NCBI RefSeq assembly: GCF_003334355.1
Contig: NZ_QOWP01000002.1
Source of the DNA: Escherichia coli
Lineage (GTDB): Bacteria; Pseudomonadota; Gammaproteobacteria; Enterobacterales; Enterobacteriaceae
Reading direction: 5' to 3' (one strand)
Length of the DNA stretch: 64,000 bases
Shown here: piece after piece, positions 11,401 to 19,377 of the stretch
How the letters are laid out: each line of letters starts with the position of its first letter
How positions within the stretch are numbered: the first letter of the stretch is position 1
Position numbers and translations under genes: made by a program
Notes under the pieces: generated by a model
What the model was told of the DNA's origin: nothing
Seen by the model: only the letters and a program-made list of their open reading frames with translations
Database searches by the model: none

Positions 11401-13599
11401 TTACTGCTGTGGTTGTTGCTGAGTTGATTTTTGCAGGATGCTGCTGATGTCCATGCGCTGCGCATGACCCTGTGCCTGACTTTTCAGGACAAGCTCTGCA
11501 TCAGCACGGGCATTGTCTCCTTGCTGTTGCTGGAACTGTCCGAGCAGTTTCAGCGCCTCACGGATATCAGATTTTTGCTGGCTATCGGCAGATGCGAGGA
11601 TTTTCACAACATTTGCCGCAGCAACCTGAGCATCCGTCTGTGCCTGGAATGCTTTAACCTGAATGGCTGCCTGTTCGTTCTGCGCTTTCTGCAATTCAGC
11701 CTGACCAGCAAGAAGCTGACCTTGCGCTGCAACCATAGCCGGATCTGGCTGACTGGCCTGTTGTTGTTTCGCCTGTTCAACCATCTGCTGTTCTTCAGGC
11801 GTTCTCGGCTTGATAACGCCAGACAGAAGCAACTGATTGCGGTTGTATTCTTTAAGGTCGTCCATCCCTTCGCCGTCCATATTGTCGAGGATCATCGACG
11901 ATACAAGGTCGTGTTTCGGCGTTCCGGGCGGGATAAGTGCCAGCATGGAAAGTAACGACTTAACCGTTGCGTCACGGCGAGTAGCGAACGACTGACCGAC
12001 ATCGACAGTCACTTCATAGTTACCCTGCGAAAGGTCGTTAAGCGCGATAACCTGCCCTGTCTGACGGTCAACCACTTCACCAGTCATCAGCGCCACGTCA
12101 TCGCTGCCGTCCTCATTAACGATACGCATCGGCGTATCACTGCCATAGACCTCACGCGCCATAGAAAGCCACACAACGCCAGCGCGACGCATGGATTTAG
12201 CCATGTTGTCCATGTAGATATAGGACTGCGTGTCCATCCGGTTAAAGATGCTATCAACGGTATCGGTGGCGACGTTGCTCGGCATGTTCTCAAGCTGCGA
12301 CGCACCTGTAATTTGCTGAATAGCCGTTCCTGTGTACTGCAATAGCCCGGCAAGAGCAGGAGGCATTTGTGTCGGAGGTGTATAACTACTTACCTGAGCC
12401 TGCGCAGTAATATCGCCGTTTTTGTTTTTCAGACTGACCATCGGCAGGAACGCCGGGCGCTTTTTGTTGCGCTCCGCCCAATGAGTGGCGAGAGGACCAG
12501 GAATCATGTCAACATCAACTACAGGAATGCCATCACCGCCAGCCTGAGTGGCGTTATCTGCAATCATGGAAACCATCAGGTTCTCAAGACGCTGTGCATC
12601 CATCGCTTTTGCTGCGTGGCCTTCGATTCGCTCCTGATTATCAACAAATGAGCGACGACCATATACCGGGATGAGAGGAATATGTTCGCCCGGAATACGC
12701 TTCGGTTCTTCCAGCCATTCAGCTCCAGACAGAAGACCGCAATAAACTCGGCGTTTCTTCACTGTCCGCTCACCGATCAGTTCGAATGCACCATCGGTTA
12801 GCTCGTCGACAACATCTTTGATTTGCTCTTCATCATAGATTGCCGTTTCTCCGCTAACAGGGTTGCGCCACGCCGTGAGCTTCACCTTCTCTATGCGAAC
12901 TTCGTAGTAGCGTCCAACATAGATGGCATCGGGCGTTGACCAGTCATATTGAGTGCCAGTGTCATCACGAGAAAGGCTTGCCGCGATGGAATCAGGGTAT
13001 TCAGCCTCGAACGCTTTAGGCGTCATGGAGAACATTTCCATAGCCCACATAGCATCAGAGCGGTCATATTGCTTGCTGTCCTGATCGAAGAAGACGCATG
13101 TCGCTGGGTCGTAAACAGGAAGAAGGCTGATGCGTCGCTGCTCGTTACTCGGATCCATTTCATCTTCGTAATCGGCACACATGCGGAAACAACCGAATCC
13201 GCCCGTTACAGCATCATCAAATGCGTTATCACACGCTTCGCCACCGGATGTTTCCTGGTAGTCAGCGCGGAATTTGCCGTTCATCTTTTCGGCTAACGCT
13301 TCCGATGCCTTGTCATCCTTCGGCCTGAATTTAACGCTGATGCGATTCTGTCGATACTCGCCAATGATGCGATCACATTCACGGGCAATCTTATTCAGTT
13401 CAAAGCGCGGGTAATGCTCAAACCTGCCTTCATCAAATGAGTAACCAGCGTTTGTGCTGCCTTCCCACTGTGCGCCGGATACCCGGACGAAACGTTGAGC
13501 CTCAATAATCTGCTCACGCATATCCTGCGTTGCTGACCAGGCATTATCAAAGTTGCACAGCACCTTGCGATGCCAGTCAGTCATCTTTTTTTCTGCCAT
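11401..13599 (-). CDS. portal protein, P22 gp1-like
   Basis: 732 aa with long Gln/Ala-rich C-terminal helical extension typical of P22-type portals; follows terminase. Confidence 0.85.
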   Translation of the reverse strand: MAEKKMTDWHRKVLCNFDNAWSATQDMREQIIEAQRFVRVSGAQWEGSTNAGYSFDEGRFEHYPRFELNKIARECDRIIGEYRQNRISVKFRPKDDKASEALAEKMNGKFRADYQETSGGEACDNAFDDAVTGGFGCFRMCADYEDEMDPSNEQRRISLLPVYDPATCVFFDQDSKQYDRSDAMWAMEMFSMTPKAFEAEYPDSIAASLSRDDTGTQYDWSTPDAIYVGRYYEVRIEKVKLTAWRNPVSGETAIYDEEQIKDVVDELTDGAFELIGERTVKKRRVYCGLLSGAEWLEEPKRIPGEHIPLIPVYGRRSFVDNQERIEGHAAKAMDAQRLENLMVSMIADNATQAGGDGIPVVDVDMIPGPLATHWAERNKKRPAFLPMVSLKNKNGDITAQAQVSSYTPPTQMPPALAGLLQYTGTAIQQITGASQLENMPSNVATDTVDSIFNRMDTQSYIYMDNMAKSMRRAGVVWLSMAREVYGSDTPMRIVNEDGSDDVALMTGEVVDRQTGQVIALNDLSQGNYEVTVDVGQSFATRRDATVKSLLSMLALIPPGTPKHDLVSSMILDNMDGEGMDDLKEYNRNQLLLSGVIKPRTPEEQQMVEQAKQQQASQPDPAMVAAQGQLLAGQAELQKAQNEQAAIQVKAFQAQTDAQVAAANVVKILASADSQQKSDIREALKLLGQFQQQQGDNARADAELVLKSQAQGHAQRMDISSILQKSTQQQPQQ

Positions 13600-13600
13600 A

Positions 13601-15016
13601 TCAACCTACACCACAAGGAATTGAGTAACTGGAATAGTCGGGTTGCGCAGCCGACTCCGGGCAATGCATACACATCATCAGCGCATCAGCCAGGTTAGGA
13701 GATGGAATACCGAGCTTCTGCTTCATTTCGACCTTAGTCATTAGCTCCAGCTTCCCGTTGTTATTGAATTTGCGCTGAATCTGCGTCAGTTCTGCAAACA
13801 GCTTCTCCAGCATATTCTCGCCTATCGCTTCTTTGTCGAAACTCAGCATGTCGTCGGGGTCTGCATACTCACCGTGAACAACCGCCCGATATGTCAGATA
13901 CAGCCTGTCAGCCAGCGCGTAATAGAATTGCGCTCGCTTATTGCGGAATACATCGCCAATAGTGCGAACATTGTCGCCCTGTACGACTTCATCAGCCCAT
14001 GCTCCGGCCTGATATGGCGCATCTTCATCGAATGGCGATTCGCTGCCCTTGAACATCGTGGCGGTGATTTTCTTGCCGGAGAACGCTTCCGTTGTCTGTC
14101 TGCGTAGCCCGGCACCAACACCATCACCATCCCACAGGTAATGGTCAGCGCCGTCTTCAATCGCCAGCGAAGTAGCCCAGTCAGCACCCTCGTTGATGTC
14201 CATCAGCAGACCTTCGGCAATGCGCTTAACTACCGAACCTTGACGCGATGCGTAACCTTTAGCATCTGGCCCTGTATCTGACGGGTCATGTGCAGAAACA
14301 ACCGCGCCTTTCGCTTTCCATCCGAGTTTCTTGTGCGCATCGGTTGCGGCTTCAAGCCATTCACGTTTGATGATTGCCATATCACTTGCGCTTACCGGCT
14401 CACCAAGCCAGATGTGACGATACAGTGTCGGATTTCTGCGTTTACACTCTTCCATCTCCAGACGGAGAACTTCAGGAAAGTGCGGGTTGTCGGTGTAGTT
14501 CACCGTCAGCAGGCAAATATCATCGGGAGGATTTACAACGAATCGCTGATAGGTATCGTCGAGGATGTTCTTCGGGTTAAAGCTCACCCATATTTCGGAA
14601 AACGGCTTGCGGATGGTTGGGATCAGGATATCCCATGATTCCTTCGTTACCGCTTCCGCTTCTTCCACCCAGCAGATATCAATGCCTTCGAGCGATTTAA
14701 TCTTCGTCGGGTTGTTTTTGATGCCGTAGAACATGAATTCAGCATTCGTTCCGAGATGACGGATCATTGAACGCTGAATTTCAAACTCAGCCGAATACCC
14801 TTCACGCTCGATGGTGTCTTCAAGCAACCGGATTACCGAATCGCTGATACTGTTTTGCAGTTCACGAGCACAGAGAATACGCACTGGCTGCCGACGCGCC
14901 GCTTCAACAAGCAGTCTCGCAATTGCCCATGATTTACCGCTACCTCGACCGCCTTTGGCGACTTTGTAGCGATGCGCCTCAATGAACGGTTCAAAGATAG
15001 GATTAATCGAGGTCAT
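13601..15016 (-). CDS. terminase large subunit
   Basis: 471 aa, Walker A GGRGSGKS near N-terminus; overlaps small subunit stop. Confidence 0.9.
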   Translation of the reverse strand: MTSINPIFEPFIEAHRYKVAKGGRGSGKSWAIARLLVEAARRQPVRILCARELQNSISDSVIRLLEDTIEREGYSAEFEIQRSMIRHLGTNAEFMFYGIKNNPTKIKSLEGIDICWVEEAEAVTKESWDILIPTIRKPFSEIWVSFNPKNILDDTYQRFVVNPPDDICLLTVNYTDNPHFPEVLRLEMEECKRRNPTLYRHIWLGEPVSASDMAIIKREWLEAATDAHKKLGWKAKGAVVSAHDPSDTGPDAKGYASRQGSVVKRIAEGLLMDINEGADWATSLAIEDGADHYLWDGDGVGAGLRRQTTEAFSGKKITATMFKGSESPFDEDAPYQAGAWADEVVQGDNVRTIGDVFRNKRAQFYYALADRLYLTYRAVVHGEYADPDDMLSFDKEAIGENMLEKLFAELTQIQRKFNNNGKLELMTKVEMKQKLGIPSPNLADALMMCMHCPESAAQPDYSSYSIPCGVG

Positions 15017-15453
15017 TTTCCGAATAGAGTGCTCATCGGTGATGTTTCAATCTGGATTGCGCCGCCGTCTTTGCCTGTTAGCTCGTGATCAACCTTGTCG
15101 CGCCATTTATCCTTCTGTCGGTTCTTAAGCCAGAAGATGGCAGCGGTTGTATCAGGAGGGTAATACTTCTCAAGCGGAGTTTCGACAATTCTGTTTTCAA
15201 TAACACGAATATCGATGTCTGGAGCCACGAAGCCCATAGCTCGTTGATAAAGACGATCACTAACTTCTGCATCAGCGACGGCCTTACCTTTTTTTATGGA
15301 CTCCGAAAACTTAGGATAATCAAGCTTCCACTTGTTAATAGTTGACTCACTGACTTCAAAGAAATCAGCAAGTTCTGCATCGGTGTAGCCCAGCAAGCAC
15401 AGTTTGCGTGCCTGTTCGGCATACGCCTCTTGATACTTTGTTGGGCGTGCCAT
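15013..15453 (-). CDS. terminase small subunit
   Basis: 146 aa with HTH-like N-terminus (ELADFFEVSESTINKW), immediately upstream of TerL. Confidence 0.7.
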   Translation of the reverse strand: MARPTKYQEAYAEQARKLCLLGYTDAELADFFEVSESTINKWKLDYPKFSESIKKGKAVADAEVSDRLYQRAMGFVAPDIDIRVIENRIVETPLEKYYPPDTTAAIFWLKNRQKDKWRDKVDHELTGKDGGAIQIETSPMSTLFGK

Positions 15454-15455
15454 GT

Positions 15456-15698
15456 TTATGCTCCGGTAGTGAACAGGTCTAACGCTTCCTTCGATTTACG
15501 CACCGCTTCGATAGTGCGGGTCGTGATATCTGAGTTAGCGCCACCTGACTGGAAGTGAATTTTGAATAGCTCAAGCTTCAGCTCGTCAGTGCCAATGAAT
15601 TGAAATGCTTCTTCTGCGGCTGCGTTCTGGTTCATGACCAGTTTGTAAATCTCTAACTGGAATTTCTGTTCTTCAGTCATGGGAATAATCTCTGCCAT
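15456..15698 (-). CDS. hypothetical acidic protein
   Basis: 80 aa ORF abutting TerS start. Confidence 0.4.
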   Translation of the reverse strand: MAEIIPMTEEQKFQLEIYKLVMNQNAAAEEAFQFIGTDELKLELFKIHFQSGGANSDITTRTIEAVRKSKEALDLFTTGA

Positions 15699-15954
15699 TG
15701 TTGGCTCCGTTTATCCGTTAAAAGGGATATCAGTTAAGTTATCCCGTGTAGGGTATAAGCCATTGTCGAGACCACTCATTGAATGGCCTCTGCAATAACC
15801 GATGTCTTTCCATCAGTCCGCCACCACAAAGAATCTTTTTTGCCATAAGGCAGGAGGTTCATCTTTCAGTGGCTGCCAGTGTTATTTCCCCACTTACTGG
15901 CTTGGGTTGTTTCGTGGTACTGCCGTAATGCAAAAACTGGATTAACCTGCGAAA

Positions 15955-16485
15955 TCACACCATTCCGGGCAAATACATTTGCACTTCATTTGCCGCTCTC
16001 TCACGTGCAACATGAAGCAATCTTTTTCGCCCACCAACGCCCCACTTAGCCATTTGGCTTGCGCACTGGCTTATCGCTTTGGTTTCAGTATTGATGATGT
16101 GATCGATTCTATTCAGACGGGACATTGCGCCAACGCCGAGACGGACAACCGTTTTGAAAACTTCATAAACTTCGACTTCAAATTCCGGCTTAATCCATGC
16201 TGCATATCTGATTGCCAGAAGTTCAACCCCCCACACACCTGGTTCTGCACCACCTTTGATTATTTTAAGTGGTTGAATTTGTTCCAAAGTGCTTTTTTGC
16301 ACTTTGGCCTCCAGTGCTTTTATGAAGCGTTTTATCTGCGCGCTACGCAAAAACTGGCTTGGACGCTGTTGCTCTGTAGCCTCTTCATTTGCAACTGCTG
16401 CTGCATGGAGATCGTTTAAGTTGTAGCGTCCATCCTCATCAACACGAACGGACACACCATTGACAATAACTGTTGGGTACTTCAT
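15955..16485 (-). CDS. KilA-N domain protein
   Basis: VRVDEDGRYNLNDLHAAA…RPSQFLR…KGG…GVWGVELLAIRYAAWIKPEFEVEVYEVF matches KilA-N pattern; located between lysis and packaging genes. Confidence 0.65.
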   Translation of the reverse strand: MKYPTVIVNGVSVRVDEDGRYNLNDLHAAAVANEEATEQQRPSQFLRSAQIKRFIKALEAKVQKSTLEQIQPLKIIKGGAEPGVWGVELLAIRYAAWIKPEFEVEVYEVFKTVVRLGVGAMSRLNRIDHIINTETKAISQCASQMAKWGVGGRKRLLHVARERAANEVQMYLPGMV

Positions 16486-16620
16486 CAGTGATTACCTTTT
16501 AGTGATGAACCTTGTCACACAGGATTCCGGCCCACAGAAAGGCACCGATCACCAAACCGGCATCCTCAAGGGTCATCCTGAAAGGTTCTGTGTTCAGAAG
16601 TCGCGCGTGTGAAGCGCGTT

Positions 16621-16660
16621 TGTTGCAGATATAAAAAAGCCCCGCAAATGCGAGGCTAAA
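16621..16660 (-). terminator. rho-independent terminator downstream of Rz
   Basis: Minus strand reads CCTCGCATTTGCGGGGC then TTTTTTATATCTGCA; shares 15-mer with tR' copy at 18479-18493. Confidence 0.45.
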
Positions 16661-16830
16661 TCCTGGTATTTGTAATGACTGGCTCTTATCTCAACGCAGC
16701 CCCTTACCGCGCGCCAGATGCTCAATATCAAGCATCAGCAATGAGATGTTTAATCTGGATTCACTCCAGAAGTGATCACCACCCTGTCTACAGAGCCAGA
16801 TGTGAAGGATGATGAGTAAAATTATCGCTA

Positions 16831-17298
16831 TCATTGAAGGCATTGCGTCCTGATGTATTCCTGAAGCGTTCTCAGTGCTGTTTGGTCGCGGATAATTCCG
16901 TCCCGGATATCGAGAACGTTTCGTCCAGCAACTGGAGAGAGTTCGACGGTGGCATCATTGCCCATGCCGGAGGCGCCGGAGGTTTCGGCTGAGGATGGCT
17001 CAGGGCATTTTCCTTTGACGAGCACCCTGCCACCATTATCAAGCTTGCGCCGAAGAGCATCATTTTCAGCTTTCGCATCAGCTAACTCCTTCGTGTATTT
17101 AGCATCGAGTGCATCAGCAGCACGCTGGCGTTGCTGCATGTCAGTAATGGTGGCGGCCGCCTGCTTCAGCTCACTGACTTTTTTATCGCGCTGCTCTTTG
17201 TAGGTCATGGCGTTATCACGGTAATGATTAACAGCCCATGACAGGCAGACGATGATGCAGATAACCAGAGCGGAGATAATCGCGGTTACTCTGCTCAT
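16831..17298 (-). CDS. Rz: i-spanin Rz
   Basis: 155 aa with N-terminal TM and coiled coil; near-identical to lambda Rz as recalled. Confidence 0.9.
16872..17078 (-). CDS. Rz1: o-spanin Rz1 lipoprotein embedded in Rz (+1 frame)
   Basis: Signal peptide with lipobox (VAGC), proline-rich; nested inside Rz. Confidence 0.8.
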
Positions 17299-17771
17299 AC
17301 CTCAATCTCTCTGACTGTTCCGCCAGCTTCTTTGAATTTTGCAATCAGGCTGTCAGCCTTATGCTCGAACTGGCCATAACCAGCCCCCGGCAACGAAGCC
17401 CAGATATTGCTGCAACGGTCGATTGCCTGACGGATATCACCGCGATCAATCATCGGTAAAGCGCCACGCTCTTTAATCTGCTGCAATGCCACAGCGTCCT
17501 GACTTTTCGGAGAGAAATCTTTCAGGCCAAGTTGCTTACGATAGGCATCCCACCAACGGGAAAGAAGCTGGTAACGTCCGGCTGCTGTTGATTTGAGTTT
17601 GGGGTTTAGCGTGACAAGTTTGCGAGGGTGATCGGAGTAATCAGTGAATAGCTCTCCGCCAACAATGACGTCATAACCATGATTTCTGGTTTTCTGACGT
17701 CCGTTATCAGTTCCCTCTGACCACGCCAGCATATCGAGGAACGCCTTACGTTGATTATTGATTTCCACCAT
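17295..17771 (-). CDS. R: endolysin (lytic transglycosylase), lambda R
   Basis: 158 aa [28 protein letters not shown]… essentially lambda R. Confidence 0.95.
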
Positions 17772-18078
17772 CTTCTACTCCGGCTTTTTTAGCAGCGAAG
17801 CGTTTGATAAGCGAACCAATCGAGTCAGTACCGATGTAGCCGATGAACACGCTCGTTATATAAGCGAGATTGCTACTTAGTCCGGCGAAGTCGAGAAGGT
17901 CACGAATGAACCAGGCGATAATGGCGCACATCGTTGCGTCGATTACTGTTTTTGTAAACGCACCGCCATTATATCTGCCGCGAAGGTACGCCATTGCAAA
18001 CGCAAGGATTGCCCCGATGCCTTGTTCCTTTGCCGCGAGAATGGCGGCTAACAGGTCATGTTTTTCTGGCATCTTCAT
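17755..18078 (-). CDS. S: holin/antiholin, lambda S
   Basis: 107 aa [20 protein letters not shown]… with Met1-Lys2-Met3 dual start. Confidence 0.95.
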
Positions 18079-18753: not shown

Positions 18754-19377
18754 CTAACGTGTGACCGCATTCAAAATGTTGTCTGCGATTGACTCTTCTT
18801 TGTGGCATTGCACCACCAGAGCGTCATACAGTGGCTTAACAGTGCGTGACCAGGTGGGTTGAGTAAGGTTTGGGATTAGCATCGTTACAGCGCGATATGC
18901 GGCGCTTGCTGGCATTCTTGAATAGCCGACACCTTTGCATCTTCCGCATTCTTTCTCAACAACTCTCCCCCACAGCTCTGTTTTGACAATATCGACCGCA
19001 CGGCCTGTACCGTGGCAATCTCTGCATCTTGCACCCGGCGTCGCGGCACTACGGCAATAATCCGCATAAGCGAATGTTGCGAGAACTTGCAGTACCTTTG
19101 CCTTAGTATTTCCTTCAAGCTTTGCCACACCACGGTATTTCCCCGATACCTTGTGTGCAAATTGCATCAGATAGTTGATAGCCTTTTGTTTGTCGTTCTG
19201 GCTGAGTTCGTGCTTACCGCAGAATGCAGCCATACCGAATCCGGCTTGTGATTGCGCCATCCCCATAGCAGCCATCACATCAGTACCGGAAAGAGAATCA
19301 GAAGCCGTGGCCCGTGGTGAGTCGCTCATCATCGGGCTTTTTGGCGAATGAAATTTAGCTACGCTTTCGAGTCTCAT
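18754..19377 (-). CDS. Q: late antiterminator Q
   Basis: 207 aa, Cys-rich zinc-binding region, lambda Q-like. Confidence 0.9.
   Translation of the reverse strand: MRLESVAKFHSPKSPMMSDSPRATASDSLSGTDVMAAMGMAQSQAGFGMAAFCGKHELSQNDKQKAINYLMQFAHKVSGKYRGVAKLEGNTKAKVLQVLATFAYADYCRSAATPGARCRDCHGTGRAVDIVKTELWGRVVEKECGRCKGVGYSRMPASAAYRAVTMLIPNLTQPTWSRTVKPLYDALVVQCHKEESIADNILNAVTR

Follow-up and report, generated by a model that had tools for sequence, protein, structure and literature searches.

The lysis–packaging junction of the prophage

The window analysed here is a 64,000-nucleotide (nt) stretch of Escherichia coli DNA (RefSeq assembly GCF_003334355.1, contig NZ_QOWP01000002.1), and the locus of interest, at positions 15,456 to 16,660, is the junction between the lysis and packaging genes of a P22-like prophage. 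An original prediction, made from the sequence alone, had placed two open reading frames (ORFs) there, one for a 176-residue KilA-N domain protein with an uncharacterised C-terminal extension and one for an acidic protein of 80 residues, and had read both as cargo in a moron position. Both ORFs are indeed present at these positions on the minus strand, which carries all genes in this part of the window, and lie between Rz and the gene for the small terminase subunit (TerS), separated from each other by a 256-bp gap. The P22-like context was also borne out, since the flanks are 96–98% identical to the Lederbergvirus phages phiv205-1, HK620, CUS-3 and Sf101. However, the cargo label fits at most one of the two genes. 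The KilA-N gene is replaceable at a variable site and is headed by a structured RNA leader, which is shared with unrelated genes and is predicted to pair with its own Shine–Dalgarno (SD) sequence, whereas the 80-residue protein, a member of the DUF2560 family, belongs to the phage backbone. Of 5426 complete E. coli genomes, 65 contain the whole 1.2 kb at > 98% identity.

An exchangeable cassette with sharp borders

The KilA-N gene is a horizontally exchanged cassette with sharp mosaic borders. From 17400 down to 16602/16603 the sequence resembles that of HK620, phiv205-1 and epsilon34; the similarity then vanishes and returns at 15926, a breakpoint that is common to P22 and HK97; the 676 bp between the two breakpoints are the segment replaced among relatives. 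This slot holds hkbK and hkbL in HK620, a Rha gene in both phiv205-1 and P22, and a gene annotated as GIY-YIG (gp68) in epsilon34, and phage L has nothing there. In phage L and ST64T, Rz is directly followed by a 187-bp element and the DUF2560 gene, so that the KilA-N gene is, as in a moron, an insertion between genes that are adjacent in these relatives. Some relatives have a different KilA-N gene in the slot, and gene 66 of Sf6 sits inside the neighbouring 187-bp element rather than in the slot itself. Variability of this junction in P22-like phages has been documented, with rha in P22 and the antisense pid moron further on (PMC3573128).

The occupants are related to one another in part. The N-terminal ~60 residues of epsilon34 gp68 (L004 1291–1776) are homologous to HkbL (L002 2737–2994) and to a 77-residue ORF of HK97 (L007 3214–3447), both of which come after KilA-N genes, and phrog_875 matches gp68 and HkbL. 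Homologues of the window protein itself, at 43–80% identity, occupy further positions in late operons. One separates endolysin from spanin in a lambdoid prophage of Plesiomonas, and others lie among the tail genes of Dickeya, Serratia and other prophages (both siphovirus and myovirus), upstream of a Terminase_2 gene, and, in Pluralibacter, after a P22-gp16-like gene, next to an immI-like region and to Arc, Bro-N and Rha genes. Every homologue found elsewhere is co-oriented with the late genes and has a spacer of ~150–360 nt in front. The cassettes can also be stacked, as in a P22-like sequence (L030 946–3531; IMG/VR UViG_3300045988_051161) in which three leader-plus-gene units stand in tandem between Rz and DUF2560, namely KilA-N-P63C, hkbK plus hkbL, and window-type KilA-N, followed by an Sf6-gene-66-like gene inserted in the 187-bp element.

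A structured leader shared by unrelated genes

Alignment of the spacers from all contexts revealed one recurring order, i.e., a terminator hairpin with a T-run, a second small hairpin, and about 115 nt that are patchily conserved up to the ATG. A hairpin with a T-run stands 5′ of the homologous gene at other genome positions in the Plesiomonas, Dickeya, Serratia and Pluralibacter prophages, with differing stem sequences, and the small hairpin CGCGCTTCACACGCGCG is retained in most cassette contexts. The remaining ~115 nt form the leader, a single long imperfect hairpin with 27 consensus pairs in five helices. In its basal helix, 16581–16586 (ACCUUU) pairs with the SD region at 16494–16499 (AAAGGU), and its 3′ side carries a conserved 6-nt bulge, GUGUGA. 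Minimum free energy (MFE) folds of 13 diverse leaders, computed singly, gave one common architecture in which an ACCUUU-like segment pairs with the SD, and in every case the hairpin ends at the SD, 8–10 nt before the AUG. RNAalifold on a plain MAFFT alignment had found only 6 pairs because of register shifts, and was replaced by these single-sequence folds and by a model-based alignment.

A covariance model, R1, was built from three window-type sequences and the hairpin structure, and was retrained to give R2. R1 finds the leader upstream of every homologue of the window protein, and also upstream of HK620 hkbK (54 bits, rising to 96 bits with R2), phiv205-1 Rha (54 bits), P22 rha (43 bits), epsilon34 gp68 (36 bits) and the HK97 KilA-N-P63C gene (34 bits). 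R1 further places the leader before an endonuclease gene with Pfam HNH_3 and AP2 domains in L075 (3975–4637), and R2 adds a copy before a different HNH endonuclease gene (L035 571–1194; phrog_99), which lies upstream of holin and lysozyme ORFs. The genes behind the leader include hkbK, two types of Rha, epsilon34 gp68, the HK97 KilA-N-P63C gene and two HNH_3/AP2 endonucleases. R2 was run over both strands of 636 kb, and each distinct locus that was inspected directly preceded an ORF start. The 64-kb window contains one copy, and no copy was found in phage L or Sf6.

Covariation was computed on the model-derived alignment of 27 distinct leader sequences. Pairing is canonical in 95.1% of pair cells, compensatory double changes occur at 25 of the 27 pairs, and the covariation score is 0.636, compared with 0.231 for shuffles (0 of 500 reach the observed value) and at most 0.088 for slid-partner controls. 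Because an alignment fitted by a model inflates pair counts, independent fold checks were run. Unconstrained MFE folds recover a median of 91% of the consensus pairs, and 24 of the 27 leaders have z < −2 relative to shuffles. In 21 of 24 leaders the GG of the SD is predicted to be paired at P ≥ 0.95; shuffling of the upstream sequence gives it a mean unpaired probability of 0.27 (Wilcoxon p = 5e-5). With 149.5 bits on the sense strand and 23.4 bits on the reverse strand, the scores differ by 126 bits, which, together with the presence of G–U pairs, indicates an RNA in the sense of the late transcript.

RefSeq annotates nothing at the leader, and Rfam 15 gave no match on the minus strand at 16483–16600 even at E ≤ 1, nor any gathering-level match in the whole window. 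A 25-residue upstream ORF (MTLEDAGLVIGAFLWAGILCDKVHH, ~16503–16580) was rejected as coding, since ST104 loses the stop codon and indels break the frame in Plesiomonas and Dickeya. An Rfam sRNA-Xcc1 match in the Dickeya prophage (L011 5358–5445; 66.5 bits, gathering threshold 53) was rejected as a relative of the leader because it is structurally unrelated. It lies in the 5′ region of an ORF6N gene that adjoins the KilA-N cassette, and is thus another structured RNA preceding a gene of the Bro network.

The leader also bears on the annotation of Rha. The annotated starts of P22 rha (GTG, 201 residues; L005 1016–1128) and of phiv205-1 Rha (186 residues; L003 3022–3138) span the leader hairpin, and the end of the leader model coincides with, or lies a few nt from, an internal Met codon, approximately Met24 in P22 rha and Met13 in phiv205-1 Rha. 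The true Rha proteins of both phages are therefore probably shorter than annotated.

The KilA-N protein and its C-terminal domain

The 176-residue protein matches Pfam KilA-N (PF04383) over residues 9–113 (E = 2e-17), as do all 14 of its aligned relatives, and has an isoelectric point (pI) of 9.5. It is 94% identical to the proteins in the same slot of ST104 (orf45), PS119 and MG40. Residues 114–176 have no assigned Pfam family, in agreement with the original prediction, and the protein gives no match to Pfam ORF11CD3 (PF10549) at E ≤ 10. However, the domain comparison that the original prediction had itself proposed allows this extension to be identified as a divergent ORF11CD3 domain. BLASTP against HK620 HkbK gives a full-length alignment, collinear to the C-terminus, at 26% identity (E = 5e-17), and HkbK consists by Pfam of KilA-N (residues 7–101) and ORF11CD3 (residues 109–161, E = 4e-13). 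With only the C-terminal ~60 residues of both families, hhalign returned a probability of 92.3% (E = 5.7e-7, 56 columns), and the two C-termini have the motif N..S.C..(M/L)..W...K..L...Q..(I/L)PG in common. Three relatives of the window protein match Pfam ORF11CD3 weakly (E ≤ 0.1).

The same module is found behind a different N-terminal domain. The C-terminus of P22 Rha (residues ~143–200) matches both C-terminal hidden Markov models (E = 2.2e-12 and 3.5e-4), and a chimera of Phage_pRha and ORF11CD3 that is already on record (P0247) is 97% identical to HkbK in the shared part. P22 Rha, HkbK and the window protein thus join exchanged N-terminal DNA-binding modules to a common ORF11CD3 module. 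Such swapping is known from the Bro network, which was reportedly defined by Iyer, Koonin and Aravind in 2002. ORF11CD3 is among the ten Pfam families listed for this domain-swapping network (PMC10111431).

The AlphaFold2 model of the window protein, with a predicted local distance difference test (pLDDT) score of 84, shows an alpha/beta KilA-N domain and helices at residues 100–139, 142–148 and 153–171. The top Foldseek match in the PDB is the Mbp1 APSES DNA-binding domain (1bm8), although the match is weak (probability 0.80, E = 0.16). Domain and profile searches found no nuclease domain in the protein, PDB sequence searches with the family profiles gave nothing meaningful, and NCBIfam and PADLOC had no match for either of the two proteins at the junction. 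A phmmer search of 1.84 billion representatives with the C-terminal 72 residues returned 21 matches, which are close relatives or fragments, with no new partner domains.

The DUF2560 gene and the surrounding backbone

The 80-residue protein matches DUF2560 (Pfam PF10834, E = 1.3e-43) over model positions 1–72 of 72. It is acidic as had been predicted (pI 4.72, with 13 acidic and 8 basic residues), and its AlphaFold2 model (pLDDT 90.9) has four helices. The protein is 100% identical to HK620 HkbM, epsilon34 gp69 and its counterpart in Sf101, and 98.8% identical to P22 Orf80; tblastn finds DUF2560 in 178 phage records. A 44%-identical allele (ST64T orf118, ST104 orf46) takes the same place, and homologues of 31–38% identity in Klebsiella and Proteus phages lie just upstream of packaging genes, including HNH plus P27-type TerS. 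Identical DUF2560 proteins adjoin at least three different TerS types and intervening genes, and a mosaic breakpoint falls exactly at the DUF2560 stop codon, both of which argue against a terminase-specific partnership. To judge from these comparisons, DUF2560 is a backbone gene of P22-like phages that is kept before the packaging genes whatever the terminase type. The original prediction had named conservation of both ORFs, as standard packaging accessory proteins in all relatives, as what would overturn its cargo reading; this applies in part, as DUF2560 is conserved in the P22-like relatives examined, whereas the KilA-N gene is not universal.

A P22 deletion described as orf25–orf80 is viable, in that the phage still lyses and lysogenises (PMC11016777), which suggests that DUF2560 is dispensable. 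No functional study of DUF2560 itself emerged from a search of the literature. HK97-like phages keep only its first 28 codons, and this stub, with the 187-bp element, lies just upstream of the gp74 HNH gene (HK97: L007 3540–3849) and looks like an old recombination scar.

The 187-bp element is conserved at 92–99% identity in ~200 phage records (P22-like, HK97-like and some Shiga toxin phages), always with the cassette slot on one side and DUF2560 or the stub on the other. It contains no credible ORF, and the RNA fold z-score for 15699–15954 is −3.1. The Rfam family Proteo-phage-1 matches at 15871–15942 with 21.7 bits, below the gathering threshold of 42, and two of its single-stranded consensus blocks are fitted almost perfectly. 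This identity was rejected, as the match is below threshold and is absent from relatives at E ≤ 1 (68 kb searched). In phage L (L016 801–1157), the annotated orf118 is the 80-residue DUF2560 gene extended 5′ through the 187-bp element.

The coordinates of all features are collected in Table 1. The original prediction had referred to an Rz terminator. The terminator is present, with a GC-rich 8-bp stem, a 4-nt loop and a T-run, but it follows a 50-residue ORF and does not stand directly after Rz. This ORF is the equivalent of Sf6 gp65 and epsilon34 gp67, is kept in relatives, and is part of the conserved upstream flank (16603–17400, 95–96% identity in HK620 and phiv205-1), outside the cassette. 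On the packaging side, the phiv205-1 homologue of the window TerS (L003 1514–1954; phrog_309 type) is annotated as an "HNH homing endonuclease", which is probably a mis-annotation.

Table 1. Features of the lysis–packaging junction and neighbouring late genes, in order of transcription
Feature	Position	Strand	Remarks
Q, lambda-Q-type antiterminator	18754–19377	−	
PR′-like promoter, TTGACT-17-TAAATT	18711–18683	−	Consensus scan
Holin	17755–18078	−	
Lysozyme	17295–17771	−	
Rz, with Rz1 embedded	16831–17298	−	
50-residue ORF, hydrophobic N-terminus	16691–16843	−	Overlaps Rz stop; phrog_11822, E = 3.9e-38
Intrinsic terminator, late-operon sense	16628–16657	−	Stem 16657–16638 plus T-run; upstream of KilA-N gene
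Second small hairpin, CGCGCTTCACACGCGCG	16602–16618	−	Between terminator and leader
Exchangeable cassette (leader, gene and 28 bp)	15927–16602	−	Mosaic breakpoints
Structured 5′ leader	16486–16600	−	~115 nt
KilA-N gene, 176 residues	15955–16485	−	
KilA-N domain, residues 9–113	16147–16461	−	Pfam PF04383
C-terminal ORF11CD3-like helical domain, residues ~119–176	15958–16131	−	pI ~10.9
Conserved non-coding element, 187 bp	15740–15926	−	
DUF2560 gene, 80 residues	15456–15698	−	Stop 2 nt before TerS start codon
TerS	15013–15453	−	phrog_309 type
Large terminase subunit (TerL)	13601–15016	−	
Portal	11401–13599	−	

Interpretation of the cassette

We consider it fairly probable that the locus combines a selfish, late-transcribed and translationally throttled cassette of the Bro network (15927–16602) with a stretch of phage backbone (15456–15926, i.e., the 187-bp element and DUF2560). 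The anatomical part of this reading is likely, while the biological role of the cassette is speculative. The selfish character is proposed because the leader also fronts HNH-AP2 and GIY-YIG-like genes, and because the units are polymorphic, stackable and positionally promiscuous. By computation, both presence/absence polymorphism at intergenic sites and a hairpin occluding the ribosome-binding site (RBS) were found.

Transcription of the KilA-N gene would come mainly from PR′, by the Q-modified, terminator-resistant polymerase, and would thus occur late in lytic growth and not in the lysogen. This late-only transcription is proposed because no promoter was detected and a terminator stands just upstream. 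It would fit the expression pattern of lysogens of the P22-like prophage BTP1, in which only bstA, cI, pid, gtrA and gtrC are highly expressed by RNA sequencing (PMC7067206). Once transcribed, the leader hairpin would pair with the SD and throttle translation, and relief might come from RNase III cutting the ~40-bp rod or from a factor that recognises the conserved 6-nt bulge. The T-even phages restrain intron-encoded and free-standing homing-endonuclease genes by the same logic, as I-TevI-III, segB and mobE are controlled by RBS-sequestering hairpins (PMC2988022).

The protein would combine an APSES-like KilA-N DNA-binding domain with a basic helical ORF11CD3 module, and may be a functional parallel of P22 Rha. 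A paper citing Henthorn & Friedman describes P22 rha as a late-operon gene that is dispensable and harms phage growth without IHF (PMC4936722). By analogy with this regulation an IHF consensus site (WATCARNNNNTTR) was looked for; none was found near the KilA-N gene, and the total in the window is that expected by chance. The KilA-N protein may thus be a non-essential, potentially growth-inhibitory DNA-binding protein carried on a selfish cassette. Any benefit would be more likely to lie in interactions with the DNA of other resident or co-infecting phages than in packaging or lysogenic conversion.

More tentatively, and with slightly less conviction than doubt, we propose that the leader is an undescribed class of cis-acting RNA that marks mobile late-operon cassettes in enterobacterial podo-, sipho- and myovirus prophages, and that it serves as a "silencing adaptor" for toxic or selfish genes. 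In this proposal, one covarying, SD-occluding structure, usually placed behind a terminator, would front interchangeable and stackable ORFs, namely KilA-N, Rha, P63C or ORF11CD3 combinations, HNH-AP2 and GIY-YIG-like genes. Opening of the adaptor might depend on RNase III or on a common factor supplied by host or phage.

Several points weigh against the selfish, throttled cassette. First, a perfect TATAAT directly precedes the hairpin in part of the family (the Dickeya and Pluralibacter types), so that some cassettes may be self-transcribed. Second, the window protein has no nuclease domain, and selfish homing is argued only from the neighbours of the family; moreover, we infer both the DNA binding of this protein and the late-only expression in this prophage from the sequence. 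Third, the leader alignment was fitted by the covariance model, with the inflation of pair counts noted above, and two of the 27 leaders (the HK97 leader and the second L018 copy) recover no consensus pairs in their own MFE folds, while the z-score of the window leader is only −2.1. Fourth, the basal SD helix is only 6 bp long and A–U rich, so repression may be mild. Finally, with regard to the backbone, the wording of PMC11016777 leaves it ambiguous whether orf80 was completely removed.

Alternative explanations

The original prediction had likened the two genes to bor, lom and toxin genes, i.e., to classical morons expressed from the prophage for the benefit of the host through lysogenic conversion. 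The junction is a proven moron site in P22, where pid is inserted (PMC3573128). Compared with phage L, the KilA-N gene is inserted DNA, and the TATAAT just 5′ of the leader in some relatives would be in keeping with autonomous expression. In the window, however, a crude sigma-70 consensus scan found no promoter-like sequence in the stretch that separates the terminator from the ATG (minus strand, 16486–16637), and no intrinsic terminator was found after the gene (minus strand, 15699–15954), so that the terminator lies upstream of the gene and not behind it. The GC content of the gene (0.461) is not atypical for the window (0.476), its SD is predicted to be occluded, and the gene is always co-oriented within late operons. 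BTP1 lysogens express pid highly but not the neighbouring late genes (PMC7067206). DUF2560, which might have been included as a second moron, is backbone and not an insertion. The likeness to these morons does not hold, and we regard this explanation as unlikely.

A second alternative concerns the leader, which could be a mere DNA recombination linker between cassettes, or a fortuitous palindrome, rather than a regulatory RNA. The mosaic breakpoint does coincide with the 5′ edge of the leader, and the fold z-score of the window copy is modest. Boundary sequences are annotated in the Sf6 record; for lambdoid phages, the proposal of such sequences reportedly goes back to the paper on the HK620 genome (Clark et al. 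2001). However, the leader sequence diverges strongly between cassettes while the pairing is kept (compensatory changes at 25 of 27 pairs, 95% of cells paired), which is the opposite of what a recombination linker requires. The G–U pairs and the 126-bit strand asymmetry point to RNA, and the hairpin always ends at the SD, 8–10 nt before an AUG. A linker or chance palindrome is therefore quite improbable.

It is likewise rather improbable that both ORFs are packaging accessory proteins that aid terminase or pac recognition. The position of DUF2560 is suggestive, since it and its 31–38% identical homologues are always just upstream of packaging genes, and in the window its stop lies 2 nt from the TerS ATG. 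A packaging role for DUF2560 is accordingly kept as a weak possibility. It sits poorly, however, with the viable orf25–orf80 deletion of P22 (PMC11016777), with the identical DUF2560 proteins beside at least three TerS types and the lack of co-variation with terminase, and with the 28-codon stub that is all HK97-like phages keep. For the KilA-N gene, the slot is empty in phage L and ST64T, and the same cassette occurs among lysis or tail genes elsewhere.

Least probable of all is anti-phage defence or superinfection exclusion by a KilA-N abortive-infection protein like BstA of BTP1, a protein of ~307 residues. BstA comes from a P22-like prophage and begins with a KilA-N-like domain (PMC8585504), and toxicity is known among KilA-family proteins (P1 KilA has a host-killing annotation), but PADLOC gave no match at E ≤ 1, the C-terminus of the window protein is of the ORF11CD3 type and not the unrelated C-domain of BstA, and BstA is co-transcribed with cI in lysogens (PMC7067206), whereas the window gene is insulated in the late operon.

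Novelty and significance

In themselves the two ORFs are routine and of known kinds, with near-identical genes already annotated in ST104, HK620 and P22. Mosaicism at this junction is textbook knowledge, and its variability has been published together with the P22 pid moron (PMC3573128, PMC8835761). Three results appear to be new. The first is the ORF11CD3 assignment of the C-terminal extension of the window protein and of the C-terminus of P22 Rha. The second is the exact borders of the cassette. The third is the shared, covarying leader, which is apparently undescribed, although older lambdoid-genome papers may hold a mention of it (e.g., among the boundary sequences in the Sf6 record).

If the leader is what it seems, it provides a handle for the automatic finding of such cassettes, corrects probable mis-annotations of start codons such as that of P22 rha, and accounts for the sharp mosaic borders. 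For phage genes that have resisted functional study for two decades, it would also suggest a mechanism that can be tested, namely that selfish late genes are gated at translation. Because the ORF11CD3 module links the KilA-N and Rha occupants of the slot, the old P22/phi80 Rha phenotype is the best functional lead.

Comparison with known systems

The closest known relatives are the KilA-N proteins of ST104 (orf45), PS119, SE1, MG40 and UPF_BP1, which are 90–94% identical and have the same leader in the same slot between Rz and DUF2560. These are Salmonella phages, whereas the window holds an E. coli prophage, and ST104 differs further in carrying the divergent 44% DUF2560 allele, orf47 and a dec-like gene with its KilA-N gene. 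HkbK of HK620 also shares the slot, the KilA-N plus ORF11CD3 architecture, a homologous leader and identical flanks. It differs in its low sequence identity (26%), in matching Pfam ORF11CD3 directly, whereas the window protein does so only by profile–profile comparison, and in being followed by hkbL. P22 Rha (orf201) has the slot, the ORF11CD3 C-terminus and the leader family in common with the window gene; its N-terminal module is Phage_pRha instead of KilA-N, and the IHF consensus site is lacking near the window gene.

For the backbone, P22 orf80 and HK620 hkbM are 98.8–100% identical to the window DUF2560 gene and are in the same position, with no difference of substance, except that in P22 orf80 is flanked by the pid moron and orf59c. 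The pid moron (Cenens 2013; Wolput 2022) lies at the same lysis–packaging junction and shows that cargo does insert here (PMC3573128, PMC8835761). We note two differences between pid and the window KilA-N gene. First, pid occupies a second slot, between the 187-bp element and orf80, which is empty in the window (~27 bp). Second, pid runs antisense to the late operon with a promoter and a terminator of its own, and is unrelated in sequence to the window gene.

BstA of BTP1 and P1 KilA resemble the window protein as temperate-phage proteins with a KilA-N or KilA-N-like N-terminal domain (PMC8585504), but differ from it in their C-terminal domains, genome positions and regulation. The nearest parallel to the leader is found in the T-even phages, where hairpins at I-TevI-III, segB and Aeh1 mobE likewise occlude the SD of a dispensable, mobile and potentially harmful gene that resides in a host operon (PMC2988022). 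The T-even hairpins are short, each is specific to its gene, and internal late promoters bypass them, whereas here one homologous structure of ~115 nt is common to many unrelated ORFs in lambdoid late operons.

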